Below are positions 50,532 through 60,847 of a stretch of DNA of 64,000 nucleotides, piece after piece. The position numbers and the translations under genes are program-made. The stretch lies in the NCBI GenBank assembly GCA_963720755.1, contig CAVRGP010000006.1:220387-284386 (forward strand), read 5' to 3'. The notes beneath the pieces were generated by a model, which ran no database searches, was not told the origin of the DNA, and saw only the letters and a list, made by a program, of their open reading frames with translations. The stretch is from an uncultured Chloroflexia bacterium. GTDB lineage: Bacteria; Chloroflexota; Limnocylindria; Limnocylindrales; CSP1-4. Positions within the stretch are counted from its first letter, which is position 1. Each line of letters begins with the position of its first letter.

Positions 50532-50559
50532 TTGACATCGAACGTCCGTTCGTTATCAT
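50532..50559 (+). promoter_or_regulatory. lexA promoter with autoregulatory SOS box
   Basis: TTGACA (50532), CGAACGTCCGTTCG (50539-50552), TATCAT (50554). Confidence 0.88.
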
Positions 50560-50578
50560 GCTTGACAAGGAGGCGCGA

Positions 50579-51229
50579 GTGACCAAACACGACGCCGAAC
50601 GCAAGGTCAAGATCCTGGACTTCATCGCCGCGACGCTACGGGCGCGCGGCTATCCGCCGTCGGTTCGTGAGATCGCCCGGGCTGTCGGGCTGGCCTCCAC
50701 CTCGGCTGTCCATCACCACCTCCAGATCCTCGAGCGCGAGGGGTACCTGGAGCGCGGCGCCGCCCAATCGCGGGCCATCCGGTTGACGCCGACGGCGGCG
50801 ATCCGCCTGGGCCTGACGAGCGAGCTCGTGCCGCAGGCGACGGCCGGTGACGCCAGGGTGGTGCCGATCATCGGGGAGATCGCCGCGGGCGGACCGATCG
50901 AGGCCTACCAGGACGCGACGGAGACGATGGCGATCCCGGACGTCCTCGCGCCGGGTGGGGACGCCTACGTCCTCCGGGTGCGCGGCGATTCGATGATCGA
51001 GGCCCACATCGCGGACGGTGATTTCGTCCTGATCCGCCCCCAGACCACCGCGCGCAACGGGGACATCGTCGTCGCCCAGGTGGAAGAGAACGCGGTCACG
51101 CTGAAGCGCTTCTTCAAGGAGAAGGACCAGGTCCGGCTCCAGCCGGCGAACCCCGCCTATCCCGTCCAGTTCTATGACGACGTCCGGATCCAGGGAAAGC
51201 TGATCGGCGTCATCCGCCGACTCGACTAG
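50579..51229 (+). CDS. lexA: SOS repressor LexA
   Basis: GYPPSVREI, IAAG cleavage site, VRGDSM, TLKR; AAGGAGG RBS. Confidence 0.97.
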   Translation: MTKHDAERKVKILDFIAATLRARGYPPSVREIARAVGLASTSAVHHHLQILEREGYLERGAAQSRAIRLTPTAAIRLGLTSELVPQATAGDARVVPIIGEIAAGGPIEAYQDATETMAIPDVLAPGGDAYVLRVRGDSMIEAHIADGDFVLIRPQTTARNGDIVVAQVEENAVTLKRFFKEKDQVRLQPANPAYPVQFYDDVRIQGKLIGVIRRLD

Positions 51230-53475: not shown

Positions 53476-53662
53476 GCCGGCCGGGTCAGGCAAGGGGTCG
53501 CAGCTAACCGGGAGGTGAGTGGCCAGCGCCAGGATGGCGCGCATGCCACCTCCCGACTCGACCCTCGATCTGGCTTTCGCGCGGCCCATCCGGACGCCTG
53601 TCGCGGTCGGGCCGGGTCGTCCAGTCGTCGGAACGTTCAGGCAGGGGGCGCCAGGCGACGGG

Positions 53663-56600
53663 ATGAGCGGCTATCCGATCCAACCCACGAAGGTCCAGTC
53701 TCCGCCGCTGCGGGACCAGACCCTCGCCCGCGATCGTCTGCTTGACTGGCTGGCCGCGCGGATCCACGACCGGGTGATCCTCCTGTTGGCGGATGCGGGC
53801 TACGGCAAGACGACTCTGCTCGCCGATTTCTCGCGACGGACCCGCGTCAGAACGCTGTGGTATCGGCTCGATGAGGACGACCGGGACTGGGTCCCGTTCC
53901 TGAGCCACATCGTGGCAGCCGGTCGCGAGCACGACCCCGGGTTCGCCCCGCGGACGACAGCCCTGCTGGGCGACATGGCGCTCGGCGGCCCGACCCGCGA
54001 GGCGGCCACGGACGTGCTCATCCGAGAACTGCCGACCATCTCGGAGCAGGGCGCTGCACTCATCCTCGACGACTTCCACCTTGTCGATGGGTCGGCGGAT
54101 GTCCGGTTCATCGTCAAGGAGCTCATCGCGAGGGCGCCGGAGCGGCTATCGATCATCTTCGCGAGCCGGCGCGCACCGACGATCCCGCTCGCGCAGATGC
54201 GCTCAGCTGGGGAACTTTCGGAACTCCGAACGGACGACCTCCGCTTCGATGTCGCCGAAACCAAGCGCCTGTTCACGGAGACATACGGGCGCGATCTGGA
54301 TGCCGACGTCATCGCTGACGTGGCCGCTCGGACCGAGGGCTGGGCCGCGTCACTCCAACTTGTCCAGGCGGCATTGCGAGATCGGTCACCGGCAGAGACC
54401 CGGCGGTTCGTCCGGAGTCTGTCCGGGGCGGACCAGGAGCTCTACGACTACCTCGCCGAGGAGGTGGTCGGCGATCTTGAGACGGACCTGCAGGACTTCC
54501 TCATGCGGACGTCCATCCTCCAGTTCGTCACCGCAGACCTGGCCGCCGTGGCCGCAGACATCGCACCACCGGAGGTCACCCGGCTCACCGTGGCGGCGGA
54601 GCGGTTGACGCTTCTGAGCCGGCCTCCCCGTTCATCACGCGGTCCGCAGCGATACCACCCACTCGTGCGCCAGTTCCTGGAGGCCCGTCTGCGAACGACC
54701 ATCGGAGATACGGCCATCGCCAACCTGCACCGGCGCGTCGCGGACGCCGCCTCCGAGCATGACTGGCGGACCGCAGCCCACCACTATCGGGAGGCCGGTG
54801 AGTACCACTCGTTGTCGAACACGATCGCCGGCGCGATCCCCGAGATCATGGGAAGTGGCCAGCACGCGATCGCCGCCGATGCCATCGACCGCGTGCCACA
54901 CGAGTCACGCCTGCCGATCCTGGGACTCGTCACTTCGCGGGTCCAGATGCAACGCCGCGACTACGACCCGGCGATCAAGGAGGCGCACGCAATTCTTGAG
55001 ATGGTCCAGCCTGGGTCTCAGGAGAGCGACTACGCACTCCTCAATCTCGTGACCTTCTACCTTCAGGCTGGCCTCGGTCGGCACTCCCTCCCGCTTGCAG
55101 AGCGGCTGCGCCAGACCACGTCGAGTGAGCACTTGAGACTGATAGCAGAGGGCACCGGCTTGATGATCGATGCAACCTTCGAGGGGAGCATTGACGCCAT
55201 GTCGACCCACCTCAAAACGATGGCGCGTCACCAGCAAGACGTCCACCCTCATTACTACGGCGTCACCATGCTCAACCTCGCGCTCACTTCCATGATCCAG
55301 GACGACCCTCAATCGGCCGTCGACGCCGCCGATGCGGCAATCGACGCCCTAGAAAACACCTCGTCGAGCATGGAGTTGTCGGCGGCATTCATGGCGCGCG
55401 GCTATGCGCTGACGCTTCTCGGGCAGCACGACCAAAGTCGACATGCAATCGCACGAGCCGCCGAGTTCGACGAGGTTGAAGCTGCATATGAGAGAGCTGA
55501 CCTTGCGGACAGCTTCATCGAGCCTGAGGCCGCTGCGCCGATGCTGCAAGCACTCGACGCAAGTTCCGATGCGTATGCTCGCCCCTACCACGTGATCCAA
55601 TCGGCCTGGTTCCTGGCTCGCCGCAATAGGTTCAAGGAAGCGCAGTTGGTGCTGGAGCAATCACAGCAAGGGGATGGCGTGCTCATGGGACACGCAACCG
55701 TCCGGCGAGTCACGGCGGCGTACGTGGCGGTGGCTTCAGAATCCAGCGCCGCGCCACGCCTCATCGAGGAAGCTTGGAAGGTTTCAAGAGACCAGGGCGC
55801 GACGCGATGGAGACGCGCCGCAGAACTTCTCAGAGCGGTCTCGGGGTCCACGAGCGACCTCAACTCGACGATCCGGAATGTGGGGTCCGTCTCTCCCTGG
55901 ACTCTGACCCTGCTCGCAGACCTTGTGTCTCGCCGGCTGGACGACATCGACATGCTTGCGATCTCGGCCGTGCAGAGTGCCGCCGCGTTGCATCCTGGCC
56001 GCTGGAGATTTGTCCTCCGACGTCGCGTTTCCGAAACCTCTGCAGAGGGAAGTCTTGCGGCCGCTCGCCTGCTCGAGACGATTGGTCAGAAGCAAGATGT
56101 GCAGCTCCTCCGATCGTTCGCCAGACTTCATCGTAGGCAACCGGGCGTCTCCAATCTGGGTCGGACGCTTGCGCGCCGGCTTGCGGACCCAGTCGTTGTG
56201 GAAGATCAGGGTCGCGTCGCGATGGTTGTGGGTGAGCGGAATATCTCGGGCTCGACCATCCGACGGAAAGTGCTGGCTTTGCTTTGCTTTCTGCTAACGA
56301 GACCCGGACTCTCAAGTACACGAGACCAGGTGCTCGACGCTCTGTGGCCAGACCTTGACCCACCAGACGCCGTCAACTCGCTAAATCAGACTGTGTACTT
56401 CTTGCGACGAGTGATCGAGGAGCGGTATGTCGATGACCTCTCGCCCGGCTACTTGCACCACGACTCGGACCTGATATGGCTTGACCCAGAACTCATCTCG
56501 AGTCGCAGTAACGAATGCAGGATGTTGATACAGGCGTTGCCTGTGGAACCTACGCCTGACCAGGTTGCGACCCTGGTCGAGACGTATCACGGTCGCTTCG

Positions 56601-56908
56601 CCCTCGACTTCGAGTACGAAGAGTGGGCCGCCCCGTACAGAGACTGGCTGCACGCGTCGTATCTCGAGATTGTCGAACGGGCGGTAACACGCGATCTCGA
56701 AACCGGCCACTTTGACCGCGGCATCAAGCTTGCCAGACGCGCGATGGACATCGATCCCGACGCCGACAACATCGAGGTGTCGTTGATCCGCTTGTACCAC
56801 GCCAGCAGCGCACACAACGCGGCAGCCGAGCAGTACGCGCACTACGCCAACTCGGTCCGCGACCAGCTCGGAATCGAACCACCTACCCTCAATTCGTTGT
56901 GGGGATAG
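53663..56908 (+). CDS. Large STAND (MalT-like) ATPase/TPR regulator with C-terminal wHTH and BTAD domains
   Basis: ADAGYGKTT, LILDDFH, TEGWAA, RYHPL; C-terminal ALLCFLL...RDQVLDALWP...NSLNQTVYFLRR and BTAD-like helices ending LGIEP. Confidence 0.85.
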   Translation: MSGYPIQPTKVQSPPLRDQTLARDRLLDWLAARIHDRVILLLADAGYGKTTLLADFSRRTRVRTLWYRLDEDDRDWVPFLSHIVAAGREHDPGFAPRTTALLGDMALGGPTREAATDVLIRELPTISEQGAALILDDFHLVDGSADVRFIVKELIARAPERLSIIFASRRAPTIPLAQMRSAGELSELRTDDLRFDVAETKRLFTETYGRDLDADVIADVAARTEGWAASLQLVQAALRDRSPAETRRFVRSLSGADQELYDYLAEEVVGDLETDLQDFLMRTSILQFVTADLAAVAADIAPPEVTRLTVAAERLTLLSRPPRSSRGPQRYHPLVRQFLEARLRTTIGDTAIANLHRRVADAASEHDWRTAAHHYREAGEYHSLSNTIAGAIPEIMGSGQHAIAADAIDRVPHESRLPILGLVTSRVQMQRRDYDPAIKEAHAILEMVQPGSQESDYALLNLVTFYLQAGLGRHSLPLAERLRQTTSSEHLRLIAEGTGLMIDATFEGSIDAMSTHLKTMARHQQDVHPHYYGVTMLNLALTSMIQDDPQSAVDAADAAIDALENTSSSMELSAAFMARGYALTLLGQHDQSRHAIARAAEFDEVEAAYERADLADSFIEPEAAAPMLQALDASSDAYARPYHVIQSAWFLARRNRFKEAQLVLEQSQQGDGVLMGHATVRRVTAAYVAVASESSAAPRLIEEAWKVSRDQGATRWRRAAELLRAVSGSTSDLNSTIRNVGSVSPWTLTLLADLVSRRLDDIDMLAISAVQSAAALHPGRWRFVLRRRVSETSAEGSLAAARLLETIGQKQDVQLLRSFARLHRRQPGVSNLGRTLARRLADPVVVEDQGRVAMVVGERNISGSTIRRKVLALLCFLLTRPGLSSTRDQVLDALWPDLDPPDAVNSLNQTVYFLRRVIEERYVDDLSPGYLHHDSDLIWLDPELISSRSNECRMLIQALPVEPTPDQVATLVETYHGRFALDFEYEEWAAPYRDWLHASYLEIVERAVTRDLETGHFDRGIKLARRAMDIDPDADNIEVSLIRLYHASSAHNAAAEQYAHYANSVRDQLGIEPPTLNSLWG

Positions 56909-56921
56909 GTAAGGTTGCGTA

Positions 56922-56951
56922 TTGACCGGTTCACTCGCCGGTCCATATAGT
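56922..56951 (+). promoter_or_regulatory. Putative promoter of the riboswitch/peptide/HD-GYP operon
   Basis: TTGACC (56922-56927), 18 nt, TATAGT (56946-56951). Confidence 0.65.
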
Positions 56952-56996
56952 CCCGGGACTTCGTAGTACTCCAGTACTAGGAAGCCAAGTCAATAC

Positions 56997-57068
56997 GCTC
57001 GGACGCGCTGAAGCACCACCTGAAATGGGCACTTGGGGTGGAGCAGAGCGAGTAGTGCAACCGACCGA
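56997..57068 (+). ncRNA. c-di-GMP-II riboswitch
   Basis: TCGGA...TGAAG...GGGCACTTG...GAGC.AGTAGTGCAACCGAC; GCAC/GTGC pseudoknot pair; P1 TCGG/CCGA. Confidence 0.82.
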
Positions 57069-57090
57069 CCACAAGTCAGGTCGGTTTTTG
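57059..57090 (+). terminator. Riboswitch expression-platform terminator
   Basis: AACCGACC-GAC-CACAA-GTC-A-GGTCGGTT-TTT; overlaps the aptamer 3' strand. Confidence 0.78.
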
Positions 57091-57129
57091 TGTTCCTTGG
57101 AACACGAAGGCCGCGAAGGAGGATCGAGC

Positions 57130-57162
57130 GTGAATCCGGAAACGATCAGCAAGGGCTGGTAG
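57130..57162 (+). CDS. Possible 10-aa micro-ORF (MNPETISKGW)
   Basis: AAGGAGG at 57116-57122, 7 nt before GTG. Confidence 0.35.
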   Translation: MNPETISKGW

Positions 57163-57173
57163 AGGGCCTTCCA

Positions 57174-57263
57174 ATGAAGGCCAAGATTTCGCGAATCATG
57201 GTGGCGCTAATAAGTGTCGCTTTGGTCGCGGTGGCTGGCGGAGCGTCATTACGAGGCTTCTAG
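57174..57263 (+). CDS. 29-aa putative signalling-peptide precursor
   Basis: MKAKISRIMVALISVALVAVAGGASLRGF: basic N-region, hydrophobic core, GGA, short polar/aromatic tail; GAGGG upstream. Confidence 0.75.
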   Translation: MKAKISRIMVALISVALVAVAGGASLRGF

Positions 57264-57337
57264 TACGTTTGGATTGATTACCAAGCAGAGCTGTAGGTAA
57301 TACAGTCGTTGCTGATCGTCCACGTACGGGGCAGTAG

Positions 57338-58738
57338 ATGCCGCAATCGCTAAAAGCCTACGTCACGGGAGTCGTGACCCTGAGTGCTCTCGCACTCGTG
57401 GTTGCGACTCTTGTGTTTCCCGCTGGTCCGGGGATCGCGCTTGGCGCCAGCGGACCCGTACCAACCATTTCCGAAATCTGGCTAGGCGTCGCGTTCTGGA
57501 TCGTTCTCACGCTCATTGCATCCGCGTTGCCGGTCAAACTGCCGATGGGCACGCACCAGGCTGTTGCCATGGCACCCCTCATCGCCGCGATGTCGTTGGG
57601 CGGACCGGCCGTCGCTGGATGGGTTGCAGCGCTAGGTTCCACCGAAGCTCGCGAGCTTCGAGGTCGCATCCCTTGGTATGGGTCGCTGGTCAATCATGCC
57701 GGGGCGACACTGCCAGCAATTCTCGGCGGTGTGGTAAGTAGCGTGATCCTGCGGGTCGCCGGACAATCTGGGCGGCAGGACCTTGGGATCGACCTGATCG
57801 CCACACTTGCGGGGTCGGCAGTCCTGCTCGGCTTGAACACTGCTATCGCCGCGGGCGTGCTCGCGTTGAGAACCGAGCAGCCCTTCGCAACCGTGCTCGG
57901 AGGCGACTACCGAGCCACAGCGTTCAACAATCTCGCGCTAGTCCCACTGGGTTGGCTCATGGCGCTCGTGTACTCGACCCTCTGGTGGGCAACACTCCTC
58001 TTCGCCGTACCGCTGTATACGACTCGGATGGCGTCGGTGCGGTTCGTGGAGATGCGCGACATGTTCACGCAGACGATCGGGGCCCTGGCGGCTGCTGTGG
58101 ACAAGCGAGATCCATTCACGGCGGAGCACAGCCGGAACGTGAAGACGATCTCGGTCGATATCGGGCGGGTCATGCGGCTCAGTGACGCGGAGCTGGAAGC
58201 CCTCGAGTGGGGGGGCCTGCTCCACGATATCGGGAAGATCGGCATTCCGGACAACGTCCTCAAGAAGCCTGAGCGCCTGACCCGAGAGGAACGGATGATG
58301 ATGAATGCGCACCCGGTCAAGGGTGCCGAGATCATCGAGCCGGTCGCCAAGTTGGCCGCGGAACTGCCGATCATCCGACACCACCATGAGTGGTACAACG
58401 GCTCGGGCTACCCGGACCGTTTGATCGGCGACGAGATCCCGAAACTGGCCCGCATCCTGCACGTGGCCGACGCCTTCGAGGCGATGACCGCAGCTCGACC
58501 CTATCGCATGACCCCGTTGACCCCGGAGATCGCACTCGCGGAATTGCGCAAGTTCGCCGGCGTGCAGTTCGACCCGGTCGTGGTCGATGCATTCGTCCGG
58601 ACGCGTCACGCCGATGGGGTGGCGGACGCCGGACGCACGCCCGAGCCTCGACAGATCCCGCTGATCGCCCAGGCTGCGGAGCGCATGGCGATGCCCAGCT
58701 CCGGGCCTGCCCCAGGCTCGCCGACCGATCTCGGCTGA
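57338..58738 (+). CDS. Membrane-sensor HD-GYP cyclic-dinucleotide phosphodiesterase
   Basis: About 7 N-terminal TM segments; DPFT..HS, LLHDIGK, HHEWYNGSGYP, VADAFEAMT..RPY, QFDP. Confidence 0.92.
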   Translation: MPQSLKAYVTGVVTLSALALVVATLVFPAGPGIALGASGPVPTISEIWLGVAFWIVLTLIASALPVKLPMGTHQAVAMAPLIAAMSLGGPAVAGWVAALGSTEARELRGRIPWYGSLVNHAGATLPAILGGVVSSVILRVAGQSGRQDLGIDLIATLAGSAVLLGLNTAIAAGVLALRTEQPFATVLGGDYRATAFNNLALVPLGWLMALVYSTLWWATLLFAVPLYTTRMASVRFVEMRDMFTQTIGALAAAVDKRDPFTAEHSRNVKTISVDIGRVMRLSDAELEALEWGGLLHDIGKIGIPDNVLKKPERLTREERMMMNAHPVKGAEIIEPVAKLAAELPIIRHHHEWYNGSGYPDRLIGDEIPKLARILHVADAFEAMTAARPYRMTPLTPEIALAELRKFAGVQFDPVVVDAFVRTRHADGVADAGRTPEPRQIPLIAQAAERMAMPSSGPAPGSPTDLG

Positions 58739-58819
58739 GGCGACCGACCGCTCCACCGCCCACCCGAACCCTCGCTGGCTGCCTCATGATGCAGCCGTGA
58801 ACGCCGTACAACGCTGCCC

Positions 58820-60847
58820 ATGCTGATCGGCGGCATCGCGCTCGGGCTGATCCTCGGCCTGCTCGTCGGCGGCAGCATCACGAACCTCGCCTACATCCAC
58901 CTGCGCCGTCTCCGGTTGCTGCTGGTCGCGGTGGCACTCCGGTTGGCGACCGACTACCTGCTCAACGCAGGCTTCCCGATCGTCGAGCAGCTCCGAGTGC
59001 CGCTACTCGCAGCGGCGTACGCCCTGCTCCTGGTCGCGCTATGGGCGAACCGCGGGTACCCGGGCATGAGCCTCGCCTTCATCGGCGTCCTGTCGAATGC
59101 CGTGGTCATCGTGATCAACGGCGGCTACATGCCGATCTACCTGCCCAGCCTGGAACTGGCCGGACTGACCCAGGCTGACATCACGTCGGCCCTCCATTCG
59201 TTCCTTCCCGCAGCCCTCGATGCGAACTTCCTGCTCCACCTTGGCCCGTTCTCGGACGTCATCCCGATCCCCTTCCCGATCGTCCAGAACGTGGCTTCGG
59301 TCGGGGACGCGTTCCTGACCCTCGGCCTGGCGTTCTTCCTGTTCGCGGGTGTCGTTCGGATCCCGCATGAACTCGACGAGGAGCAACTCGCCGCGATCAA
59401 ACGGCGGCTCGCCAACGCGTCTCACTCGCGTCGACCGCGGCGCGCCGGCGATCCGGGCGCCGAAACGGGCCTGTCGCCGGCCTTCGCGGGTGCCGTTGCC
59501 CTGGAACGCCCGCTCATGCTCGGCAGTGCGGGGGCCGGCCTTGCGTCGCCGTCCATGACGTCGTTCGAGAGCGACGCCGCCGCCGTCTTCCCGGAGCCGT
59601 CGGACACGCTCGTCCGGGTCCGCCAGCACCCATACGTTCGGCTCGCCCTCAACGGATCGTTCTCGGCGCTGTGGGCCGGTCAGCTCATCTCGCTGTTCGG
59701 CGATCGACTGAACCAGCTCGCGCTCGTCGCGGTCGTCCTCATCTCGACCGGGTCGACCCTTGCCAGCGGGTTGGTGTTCTTTGCGGCCACGCTCCCGAAC
59801 CTGCTCCTGAGCCCGATCGCCGGGACATTCGTGGACCGATGGGATCGCAAGGAGGTGATGATCGTCAGCGACGTCCTGCGGGCGGCGCTCGTGCTCATCC
59901 TGCCGATCGTCGCCGTATGGAACCTGCTGCTGGTCTACCCGCTCGTCTTCCTGGTCACCAGCATCTCCGTGTTCTTTCGGCCCGCTCGGGTGGCCATCCT
60001 GCCGCGGGTCGTGCCCGAGGAGGACCTGCTCAGCGCGAACTCCGCGCTGTGGGTCGGCGAGACCATCGCCGATATCGTGGGGTACCCCCTGGCCGCAGCG
60101 TTCGTGGCCGTCCTCGGTTCCTCCGTGCCGCTTGCGTTCTGGGTCGATGCAGCGACGTATCTGGCCTCAGCAGCCCTGATCAGCACGATCGTCCTGCACG
60201 CAGCGCCCGCGAGCGACGTCGAGACCGGTACGGGTGCGGGGTTCCTCGCGGAGATGGCTGCCGGCTGGCAGTTCCTGCGGCACGAAACCGTGCTGCTCGC
60301 GAACACACTCCAAGGTGTGGCCGGCCAGTTCAGCCTCGGGATCACGATCGCCCTGACGCCGGCCTTCGTCGAGGTCGCCTTCGCCGACTCCGGATATCGA
60401 TGGCAGGCGGTCTACGGATTCCTCGAGGCGGGGATCGGGCTCGGAAACCTCGTCGGTGGATTCATCATCGGACTCCTCGGCACGCGCTTCGCGAAGGGTC
60501 GGATGGTGATCATCGGGTACACCGCCTGGGGCCTCTCCATCTTCCTGTTCGCCTTGTCGGGCAATGTGGCGGTCGCCCTCGGACTCGCGTTCGGCCAGGG
60601 TGTCGCGAACATGATCTTCATCATCCCGAGCCAGACCCTGTTCCAGGAGCGCACGCCGGCCGCGCTGATGGGTCGCGTCGTCGGGTTCCGGTTCGCGCTC
60701 GTGTTCGGTTCGATGACCTTCGCGATGGCGATCGGCGCCATCTTCGGGCAGATCGTCGGAGCGGCGCCGGTCATGGCGGTCTTCGGGCTGGTGACCGTCG
60801 CGGCTGGGCTCGCCGGGATGCTCGTCCCGGCGGTTCGTGATGCCTGA
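58820..60847 (+). CDS. DUF5317-like membrane domain fused to an MFS transporter
   Basis: N-terminal SNAVVIVINGGYMP...DVIP...SVGD; linker; then F.ALW.GQLIS.FGD, AGTFVDRWDRK and MGRV of a 12-TM MFS. Confidence 0.82.
   Translation: MLIGGIALGLILGLLVGGSITNLAYIHLRRLRLLLVAVALRLATDYLLNAGFPIVEQLRVPLLAAAYALLLVALWANRGYPGMSLAFIGVLSNAVVIVINGGYMPIYLPSLELAGLTQADITSALHSFLPAALDANFLLHLGPFSDVIPIPFPIVQNVASVGDAFLTLGLAFFLFAGVVRIPHELDEEQLAAIKRRLANASHSRRPRRAGDPGAETGLSPAFAGAVALERPLMLGSAGAGLASPSMTSFESDAAAVFPEPSDTLVRVRQHPYVRLALNGSFSALWAGQLISLFGDRLNQLALVAVVLISTGSTLASGLVFFAATLPNLLLSPIAGTFVDRWDRKEVMIVSDVLRAALVLILPIVAVWNLLLVYPLVFLVTSISVFFRPARVAILPRVVPEEDLLSANSALWVGETIADIVGYPLAAAFVAVLGSSVPLAFWVDAATYLASAALISTIVLHAAPASDVETGTGAGFLAEMAAGWQFLRHETVLLANTLQGVAGQFSLGITIALTPAFVEVAFADSGYRWQAVYGFLEAGIGLGNLVGGFIIGLLGTRFAKGRMVIIGYTAWGLSIFLFALSGNVAVALGLAFGQGVANMIFIIPSQTLFQERTPAALMGRVVGFRFALVFGSMTFAMAIGAIFGQIVGAAPVMAVFGLVTVAAGLAGMLVPAVRDA

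Follow-up and report, generated by a model that had tools for sequence, protein, structure and literature searches.

A conserved riboswitch-led operon of Candidatus Limnocylindria with a tailed micro-protein and a DUF5317-MFS fusion, and its proposed role in tuning a c-di-GMP enzyme

Enzymes that turn over cyclic di-guanosine monophosphate (c-di-GMP) carry sensor domains whose signals are usually unknown. Operons headed by c-di-GMP-II riboswitches were first described in Clostridia. Small peptides and small proteins act in several described systems: agr quorum sensing consists of AgrD, AgrB and AgrC; RRNPP signalling pairs Phr, PapR and SHP peptides with Rap, PlcR and Rgg receptors; small membrane proteins such as MgrB, AcrZ and CbiN regulate or assist PhoQ, AcrB and CbiM, respectively; and TnaC and SpeFL are leader peptides that sense a ligand and exert their effect at the stop codon. 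Here we describe a locus in a stretch of 64,000 nucleotides (hereafter the window) from an uncultured Chloroflexia bacterium (contig CAVRGP010000006.1, assembly GCA_963720755.1), in which a c-di-GMP-II riboswitch precedes two very short open reading frames (ORFs), the gene of a predicted HD-GYP phosphodiesterase and a gene that fuses DUF5317 to a transporter of the major facilitator superfamily (MFS). On balance, we lean towards reading it as a conserved riboswitch-led operon in which a module made of DUF5317 and a micro-protein tunes the c-di-GMP enzyme.

Between positions 53519 and 60847 of the window, the long frames that matter here are all on the plus strand. An initial annotation had named six parts there (a regulator, a promoter, a riboswitch with its terminator, a 29-aa ORF, an HD-GYP protein and a DUF5317-MFS fusion), and all six were recovered, co-oriented on that strand and where it had placed them. 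The operon is conserved in Candidatus Limnocylindria (Chloroflexota), and the 29-aa ORF recurs in three families. In 20 out of 20 loci from other genera (families f1 and f4), fetched upstream of DUF5317-MFS fusions, the order and orientation of regulator, HD-GYP gene and DUF5317-MFS gene are identical, and in family f3 the HD-GYP and DUF5317-MFS genes are adjacent as well. The HD-GYP gene was matched in 23 of 24 same-genus genomes and had no match in 16 genomes of a small-genome sister family. Being conserved to this degree, the arrangement is far beyond chance. Several same-genus loci (L005, L006, L010, L019 and others) have HD-GYP and micro-ORF frames broken by single-base shifts or internal stops, in assemblies with few contigs; the breaks are probably assembly errors and not decay.

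The 29-aa ORF (uORF2), whose product is MKAKISRIMVALISVALVAVAGGASLRGF, is, judging from its substitution pattern, a conserved and translated coding gene. It specifies a basic N-terminus, about 17 hydrophobic residues (about 17-20 over all pairs), A-x-A and the octapeptide GGASLRGF. An automatic rule retrieved uORF2 together with a shorter preceding ORF (uORF1) from 85 of 115 sources, which gave 78 distinct pairs. Contig-end fragments, an N-masked locus and long-read assemblies with frameshifts are among the 30 sources that yielded no pair; in three f1/f4 loci, out of 20, that the rule had missed, a frameshifted or divergent copy was recognized by eye. uORF2 has 29 codons in 66 pairs, 32 in nine and 31 in three, and starts with ATG in 73. 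Its variation by codon position is 0.26/0.15/0.48. Nonsynonymous (pN) and synonymous (pS) differences per site amount to 0.096 and 0.72 over codons 20-24, and to 0.18 and 0.64 over codons 25-29 (n=66), and a count restricted to the genus agrees. The C-terminal tail is the most constrained part of the ORF: in 70 of the 78 pairs the tail, eight residues long, immediately follows A-x-A, and of all 78 it reads GGASLRGF in 37 and GGASLKGF in 14. The expectation that a small ORF would be conserved at homologous loci was thereby borne out, with pN in the tail far below pS. Family f3 has a homologue of 25 codons, with its own Shine-Dalgarno sequence and a Gly-rich tail ending in Gly and a hydrophobic or aromatic residue; it occurs, without the riboswitch, in 15 of 16 loci scanned, the sixteenth having only about 250 bases upstream. 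The micro-proteins match no Pfam or NCBIfam family, only signal-peptide-like models below threshold.

Evidence that the micro-protein belongs with DUF5317 comes from outside the operon. In the window's fusion protein, DUF5317 (PF17248) is matched at 86.8 bits (cut-off 25) over profile positions 2-150 of 151. The MFS part is matched by PF07690 and PF05977 at 63.4 and 62.6 bits, above cut-off, and by TIGR00900 at 197.9 bits, below its cut-off of 319.6; public records name the protein only an MFS or macrolide-efflux-like transporter. Of 301 genomes sampled across the class, 237 contain DUF5317, frequently as two or three copies; the window's own genome gives a single match. (Eleven unpublished genomes are counted in this class sample and two in the f3 tally; none of their loci was used.) We examined 30 DUF5317 loci, 29 stand-alone and one containing an orthologous DUF5317-MFS fusion (L040). 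At 21 of them, a sense-strand ORF of 29-41 codons lies within a few hundred bases of DUF5317, mostly downstream and in two cases upstream. These ORFs encode a basic N-terminus, one hydrophobic helix and an end of the A-G-x-R-W type, and 20 of the 21 have a basic-aromatic tail. Applied to controls, the same rule found 0/30 on the antisense strand and 2/28 and 0/28 at unrelated LspA loci, none of them tailed. The link between a small ORF and DUF5317 that the initial annotation had drawn in one locus thus holds at most DUF5317 loci examined, against controls that are nearly empty, and the uORF2 product looks, by sequence, like one member of a larger family of tailed micro-proteins, so far undescribed, whose genes lie beside those of DUF5317.

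Stand-alone DUF5317 genes neighbour genes for membrane GAF-GGDEF-EAL proteins (about 880-900 residues where full length; five loci examined), for GAF-GAF-GGDEF proteins of 631-658 residues (three loci examined) and for HD-GYP proteins (two loci). Together with the riboswitch and the HD-GYP protein of the window, these enzymes sustain the claim that the set is tied to c-di-GMP turnover. Since DUF5317 and micro-ORFs are associated beside c-di-GMP enzymes, they look like an undescribed membrane module. Two loci, L037 and L048, carry two micro-ORFs in tandem (at about 2100-2450, oriented) after a stand-alone DUF5317 gene. At L048, the preceding gene encodes an HD-GYP protein with the same sensor domain as in the window, so that this locus is a split version of the window operon without the MFS. 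In another Chloroflexota class, a small single-helix ORF lies beside DUF5317 in 8 of 12 loci and the same sensor domain upstream in two of the 12. Loci L231-L236 of that class share a conserved single-helix ORF of 40-43 codons with a Gly/Pro-rich tail, about 150-250 nt upstream of DUF5317, which may be a divergent DUF5317-associated micro-protein. DUF5317 also gave matches in Thermus thermophilus and Thermotoga maritima, included as control genomes, and the family therefore reaches cultured organisms. Our literature search found no papers containing DUF5317 or PF17248.

At the head of the operon, the RF01786 aptamer scores 65.6 bits (gathering score 53.5, E 4.3e-13, model positions 1-84 of 84) and no second copy turned up in the genome. 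Of 19 same-genus loci fetched, several of them truncated by the end of a contig, 14 have the riboswitch; in loci of other genera (f1/f4) it reaches the gathering score in 13 of 20. A T run follows a terminator-like hairpin (57063-57086) whose 5' arm reaches into the aptamer at its 3' end, and the terminator helix is kept in 15 loci (alignment columns 108-136). Because the 5' arm lies inside the aptamer, we infer a candidate ON switch: bound ligand would occupy the strand, so that the terminator could not form. Upstream of the aptamer the region has a single promoter-like site, where shuffled sequences have 0.3 on average, and the motif GTATTGAC recurs at the corresponding position in other loci, as read from the locus sequences.

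In the mechanism that we propose, c-di-GMP bound to the riboswitch would let transcription read through, and the transcript would carry an ORF of 9-10 codons, a single-pass micro-protein of 29-32 residues, the HD-GYP phosphodiesterase and the DUF5317-MFS exporter. High c-di-GMP would turn the operon on and the phosphodiesterase would lower c-di-GMP again, which amounts to negative feedback. The micro-protein would insert with its N-terminus inside and its C-terminus outside, where its tail could meet the invariant Asn/Asp/Ser cluster of DUF5317 at the outer face, as ligand, subunit or substrate. The DUF5317/micro-protein module would then modulate the adjoining c-di-GMP enzyme and, in this operon, possibly the transporter also. 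The loop from riboswitch to phosphodiesterase is an ordinary design; the tailed micro-protein with its DUF5317 module, the twin tails of the two short ORFs and the sensor with the fold of an S component are undescribed as far as our literature searches reach. A bolder version would make DUF5317 a new membrane enzyme or receptor for signal-peptide-like micro-proteins, whose released or presented tail sets neighbouring cyclases and phosphodiesterases: a peptide-to-c-di-GMP axis, here closed into a loop by the riboswitch and supplemented by an exporter and by the tail in a second, soluble copy. We offer it as speculation that will probably turn out to be wrong.

Table 1. Features of the operon and its upstream regulator, in window coordinates
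Feature	Position	Strand	Basis
STAND (MalT-like NTPase) - helical repeats - winged-helix/BTAD regulator	53663..56908 (frame from GTG 53519)	+	Profile scores and synteny
Promoter-like site TTGACC-18-TATAGT	56922..56951	+	10/12 matches
Palindrome TAGTAC-N4-GTACTA, 5' of aptamer	56964..56979	+	Alignment of 15 loci
c-di-GMP-II riboswitch aptamer, RF01786	56992..57075	+	Covariance-model score
Putative intrinsic terminator (expression platform)	57063..57092	+	Hairpin and T run; helix kept in 15 loci
Mini-ORF uORF1, GTG start, 10 codons, VNPETISKGW as printed	57130..57162	+	Shine-Dalgarno sequence and conservation
29-aa micro-protein gene uORF2	57174..57263	+	Conservation and coding selection
Predicted membrane HD-GYP phosphodiesterase: sensor (residues 1-245) and HD_5 (251-415)	57338..58738	+	Pfam, fold match
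DUF5317 (residues 26-174) fused to DHA3/EntS-like MFS transporter (279-657)	58820..60847	+	Pfam, NCBIfam

The structural model of DUF5317 (mean predicted local distance difference test, pLDDT, 93.8) has five membrane-length helices and a short beta-rich insert at residues 100-160. All 103 DUF5317 sequences compared, among them sequences from another class, have the same residue at ten positions (G89, N93, N100, G102, P105, D146, S160, G162, D163, G169); D163 belongs to an S-x-G-D motif at a helix start. By the positive-inside rule, the modelled cluster of invariant residues would lie at the outer face of the membrane. Foldseek gave no match at E <=0.001, the ESM Atlas no usable match and a PDB profile search nothing meaningful. 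A wide structure search reached at best Z 6.5, with generic helix bundles and no clear fold relative. Among these bundles are 5dir_A (Z 5.3, root-mean-square deviation (rmsd) 3.0, 92 aligned residues) and 6ryp_A (Z 5.0, rmsd 3.4, 94 aligned), which we take to be LspA (signal peptidase II); GxGD aspartyl peptidases (prepilin peptidase, presenilin), in which the second of two catalytic Asp stands in G-x-G-D, have a fold that is not listed among the matches. Membership in the LspA family was considered and dropped, as hhalign of 61 DUF5317 against 16 LspA sequences from the class gave a probability of 5.1% over 18 columns. A scan of the fusion protein lists only DUF5317 and MFS families at E <=0.01, and no AgrB match in Pfam. 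Since there is no clear similar structure and the LspA profile match is non-significant, a peptidase role of DUF5317 is a lead only.

Upstream of the promoter stands the regulator. Residues 56-463 match the MalT model NF003420 at 188.8 bits, where the equivalog cut-off is 537; BTAD (PF03704) is matched at 40.2 bits (cut-off 22.1), a C-terminal winged helix (Trans_reg_C) at 24 bits, slightly below its cut-off of 26.2, AAA_16 and AAA_22 weakly and TPR_2 in one weak stretch. An OmpR-type winged helix combined with BTAD places the protein among SARP/BTAD regulators. The RRNPP type (Rap, NprR, PlcR, PrgX, Rgg) was not found in it, its matches being to MalT-type STAND, AAA_16/AAA_22 and BTAD. Of two candidate starts, the ATG chosen in the initial annotation (residue 49 of the frame) is likelier than the GTG at 53519. 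In family f3 the regulator is missing from 16 of 16 loci over the upstream part scanned (about 1.1-1.2 kb, shorter in two loci). Being absent beside the f3 operon, it is no core part.

These properties of DUF5317 and of the regulator bear on the peptide-signalling model of the quorum type put forward in the initial annotation. In the form considered here, the precursor would be cut by DUF5317 or by signal peptidase, and its tail, such as SLRGF, would be exported by the MFS and act on the sensor of the HD-GYP protein, on the STAND regulator's repeats, or on both. Much in the locus fits: the 29-aa ORF is shaped like a signal peptide with A-x-A before a tail under the strongest constraint, DUF5317 is joined to an MFS of exporter type and has both a pair of invariant Asp and the S-x-G-D motif at a helix start, uORF1 provides a soluble 9-10-mer with the same tail, the regulator that adjoins in 20/20 loci has a MalT-like ligand-sensing architecture, and the fold of the sensor (see below) is one that binds small ligands. 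However, the tail is nearly invariant over many genera, 51 of the 78 pairs having one of two octapeptides, while the sensor domain by contrast falls to 38-70% identity. Pheromones are known to diversify, so that a tail this uniform argues against a diversifying pheromone. Neither the missing AgrB match nor the LspA probability and the fold matches reported above favour a processing enzyme; micro-ORFs occur without an exporter at stand-alone DUF5317 loci, and the regulator is missing from f3. Processing and signalling after the manner of agr found no support, there being no AgrB match, no Cys in the tail (neither the 29-aa product nor any tail among the 78 distinct pairs contains one) and no histidine kinase. 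We regard the model as unlikely.

The leader of the operon contains a second short ORF, uORF1, which had been overlooked in the initial annotation. It follows a strong Shine-Dalgarno sequence, GAAGGAGGA, at 57115-57123. Among the 78 pairs, uORF1 has 10 codons in 56 and nine in 20, and starts with GTG in 65. Its end is always basic-small-aromatic: K-G-W in 40, K-G-F in 12 and K-A-W in nine. The last codon is exclusively TGG (60), TTC (12) or TAC (6); since TTC and TAC are two bases away from TGG and the aromatic residue is kept nevertheless, this speaks for selection on the uORF1 peptide. Three loci (L005, L014 and L084) show a tandem duplication of the last five to seven uORF1 codons, so that the tail motif occurs twice in a single ORF of 17-18 codons.

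The basic-small-aromatic motif ([KR]-G-[WFY]) is common to the tails of uORF1 and uORF2. Cognate tails share 2.27 of 5 positions compared with 1.91 after shuffling, a value reached in 0 of 5000 shuffles, though this figure is inflated by relatedness. Mismatches form the majority (W against F in 46 of 78 pairs), and striking cases of agreement include a pair in which both tails end K-P-Y and another in which both end K-S-W with different Ser codons. Tail residues were also compared with alignment columns of the regulator, the HD-GYP protein and the DUF5317-MFS protein; this comparison was uninformative, its groups having too few members and being confounded with relatedness.

Several features of the leader RNA are conserved as well. 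The palindrome in front of the aptamer (56964-56986 with the flanking bases) shows hardly any variation within the genus (15 aligned loci) and could be a hairpin at the 5' end or else an operator. The 3' half of the palindrome, together with GGAAGC, is complementary to GGCTTCTAGTAC (57255-57266), which comprises the last two codons of the 29-aa ORF, its stop codon and the next three bases. RNAalifold predicts this pairing within the genus over 11-12 bp, with no compensatory changes. We rejected the pairing as a general feature: over 74 loci its median energy is -18.45 kcal/mol against -17.3 in shuffles, it beats all 30 shuffles in only five of the 74, and it recurs in roughly 20 loci, all in family f1. 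Another hairpin (57086-57110; genus alignment columns 137-164) lies directly after the terminator T run and before the Shine-Dalgarno sequence of uORF1 and shows some compensatory changes. In family f3 no known riboswitch reaches the gathering score in any of 16 loci, and nothing relevant was found at E <=1 in eight loci. An element GGTATC ... CCCTTAAG, which has no Rfam match at E <=1, recurs about 60-110 nt upstream of the 25-aa ORF in the f3 loci L182-L200, where the riboswitch is missing.

Such a leader invites another explanation, namely that the short ORFs are cis-acting leader ORFs whose translation, or pausing at whose stop codons, sets HD-GYP expression, with no role in trans. Both are placed after the terminator and ahead of the first enzyme gene; a strong Shine-Dalgarno sequence precedes uORF1, and uORF2 starts 4-33 nt after the uORF1 stop codon. 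Stop codons are skewed to TAG in uORF1 (TAG 67, TAA 11, TGA 0 of 78) and in uORF2 (68/78), synonymous sites of the uORF1 tail are conserved, and the predicted 12-bp pairing joins the 5' end of the leader to the end of uORF2 in the genus. This pairing is, however, no better than in shuffles over the 74 loci. The f3 micro-ORF has a Shine-Dalgarno sequence of its own and no uORF1 before it, micro-ORFs at stand-alone DUF5317 loci are mostly downstream of DUF5317 and hence outside any leader, and the 29-aa ORF is under strong selection at the amino acid level along its transmembrane segment. A purely cis-acting role accordingly seems to us quite improbable.

HD-GYP domains are defined by their HD and GYP motifs. 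The protein encoded at 57338-58738 is matched by HD_5 (PF13487) at 134 bits (cut-off 27.2), and HDIGK and GSGYP are readable in it, which identifies it by sequence as an HD-GYP c-di-GMP phosphodiesterase. Its N-terminal sensor domain was modelled with seven helices (pLDDT 94.1). The model matches 22 entries of S components of energy-coupling factor (ECF) transporters at Z 9.2-14.9 over 153-191 residues, the next unrelated entry having 8.2; best are the metal-type 4m5b (Z 14.9, 191 residues aligned, rmsd 3.4) and 4m58 (Z 14.7), and Foldseek gives a probability of 1.00 with E ~1e-2. According to this model, the sensor has the fold of ECF-transporter S components. It has no match to a Pfam S-component family, and its profile retrieved no S component from the PDB, only weakly SemiSWEET (E 0.049) and a IIC component of the phosphotransferase system (E 0.27). 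No EcfT or EcfA gene occurs in the operon, which alone was examined for them, and our literature search found no papers pairing an S component with HD-GYP. Over the rest of the phylum, the sensor domain gives distant matches only. The window's own genome contains a paralogue of the sensor domain (contig C11:610177-610818, 38% identity) in a 485-residue frame.

Metal-type S components work with small extra membrane proteins, as CbiN serves CbiM. The best fold matches of the sensor being of this type, the micro-protein could be an accessory subunit of the S-component-like sensor; or else, the MFS being of exporter type, it could be cargo of the transporter, such as a small exported membrane-active peptide. 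In both cases DUF5317 would be a bystander. Micro-ORFs nevertheless follow DUF5317 even where the neighbouring enzyme is devoid of such a sensor (no sensor-profile match in seven GGDEF-type neighbours), and stand-alone DUF5317 loci have no MFS, so that both variants appear very unlikely. Finally, the 29-aa ORF might be an open frame that arose by chance in intergenic DNA rich in GC, the window (67% GC) having many spurious ORFs. We consider this reading refuted by frame-preserving, mostly synonymous change across three families and by the nearly empty antisense and unrelated-locus controls.

We return to the preferred reading, an operon in which DUF5317 and the micro-protein tune the c-di-GMP enzyme. 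Several observations weigh against it. It is gene neighbourhood alone that suggests contact between micro-protein and DUF5317, and the proposed topology derives from the positive-inside rule and predicted helices. A three-chain co-fold of the sensor, the DUF5317 domain and the 29-aa peptide, whose score was not specific once chain 1 was replaced, speaks neither for binding nor against it. Some lineages have the peptides but not the riboswitch, and the third family is without uORF1 and the regulator; with riboswitch, uORF1 and regulator each missing in some lineages, the parts of the operon are separable. The coding signal of uORF1 is weak (variation by codon position 0.28/0.28/0.33; tail pS 0.295 against pN 0.194), and, synonymous sites of its tail being conserved too, uORF1 may act at the RNA level. 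Loci from relatives are not independent, so that our counts overstate the support. The sequence occurs in four public DNA sets, all of them soil metagenomes of one study, and no RNA dataset is among those listed as containing it.

Taken together, the module is in our judgement real, conserved and novel, and the initial interpretation is partly supported. A repeatable gene module accompanies three classes of c-di-GMP enzymes, and one version of it is wired to a c-di-GMP riboswitch. The micro-protein is missing from gene calls and represents a new bacterial micro-protein family, DUF5317 gains its first testable context, and the fold of an ECF S component appears to be employed as a signalling sensor. 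If the tail is a processed signal, a soil lineage that is abundant and uncultured would have peptide communication linked to the turnover of a second messenger. The window also contains, at 50558-51229, a LexA repressor gene (Peptidase_S24 and LexA DNA-binding domain), which is unrelated to the operon.

Compared with described c-di-GMP-II operons, the locus likewise has a full-length aptamer above the gathering score and an overlapping intrinsic terminator. It differs in what would be controlled, a phosphodiesterase with two micro-ORFs and a DUF5317-MFS gene, and in its host, an uncultured member of the Chloroflexota; our search found no papers describing c-di-GMP-II control of such an operon. 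With RRNPP systems it shares a short precursor (basic N-terminus, hydrophobic core, conserved tail) and an adjoining cytoplasmic regulator with helical repeats. Here, however, the regulator is a MalT-like STAND protein with BTAD, the tail is nearly invariant across genera, the locus contains no Opp importer, and the peptide gene tracks DUF5317 and not the regulator. The resemblance to agr lies in the grouping of a gene for a small precursor with genes for a polytopic membrane protein and a membrane receptor; an AgrB match and a tail Cys for a thiolactone are missing here, and the output is HD-GYP instead of a histidine kinase.

The sensor has in common with ECF S components (CbiM/NikM, RibU, BioY, FolT, ThiT) the predicted fold and differs from them by lacking a sequence-family match, by its fusion to HD-GYP and by the absence of EcfT and EcfA from the operon. 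His2, a motif of metal-type S components, is lacking at the sensor N-terminus, as read from the sequence. Like small membrane-protein regulators, the micro-protein is a single-pass protein of fewer than 50 residues encoded beside its presumed membrane target. A light-induced microprotein is reported to trigger intramembrane proteolysis (PMC12780092). What sets the present case apart from such regulators is a whole family of micro-proteins with a basic-aromatic C-terminal tail, tied to DUF5317 and c-di-GMP enzymes. With TnaC and SpeFL, finally, the locus shares short leader ORFs whose C-terminal ends are conserved and whose stop codons are biased; unlike them, it has two ORFs with a common tail, one of them transmembrane, and homologous micro-ORFs are found also outside leaders.

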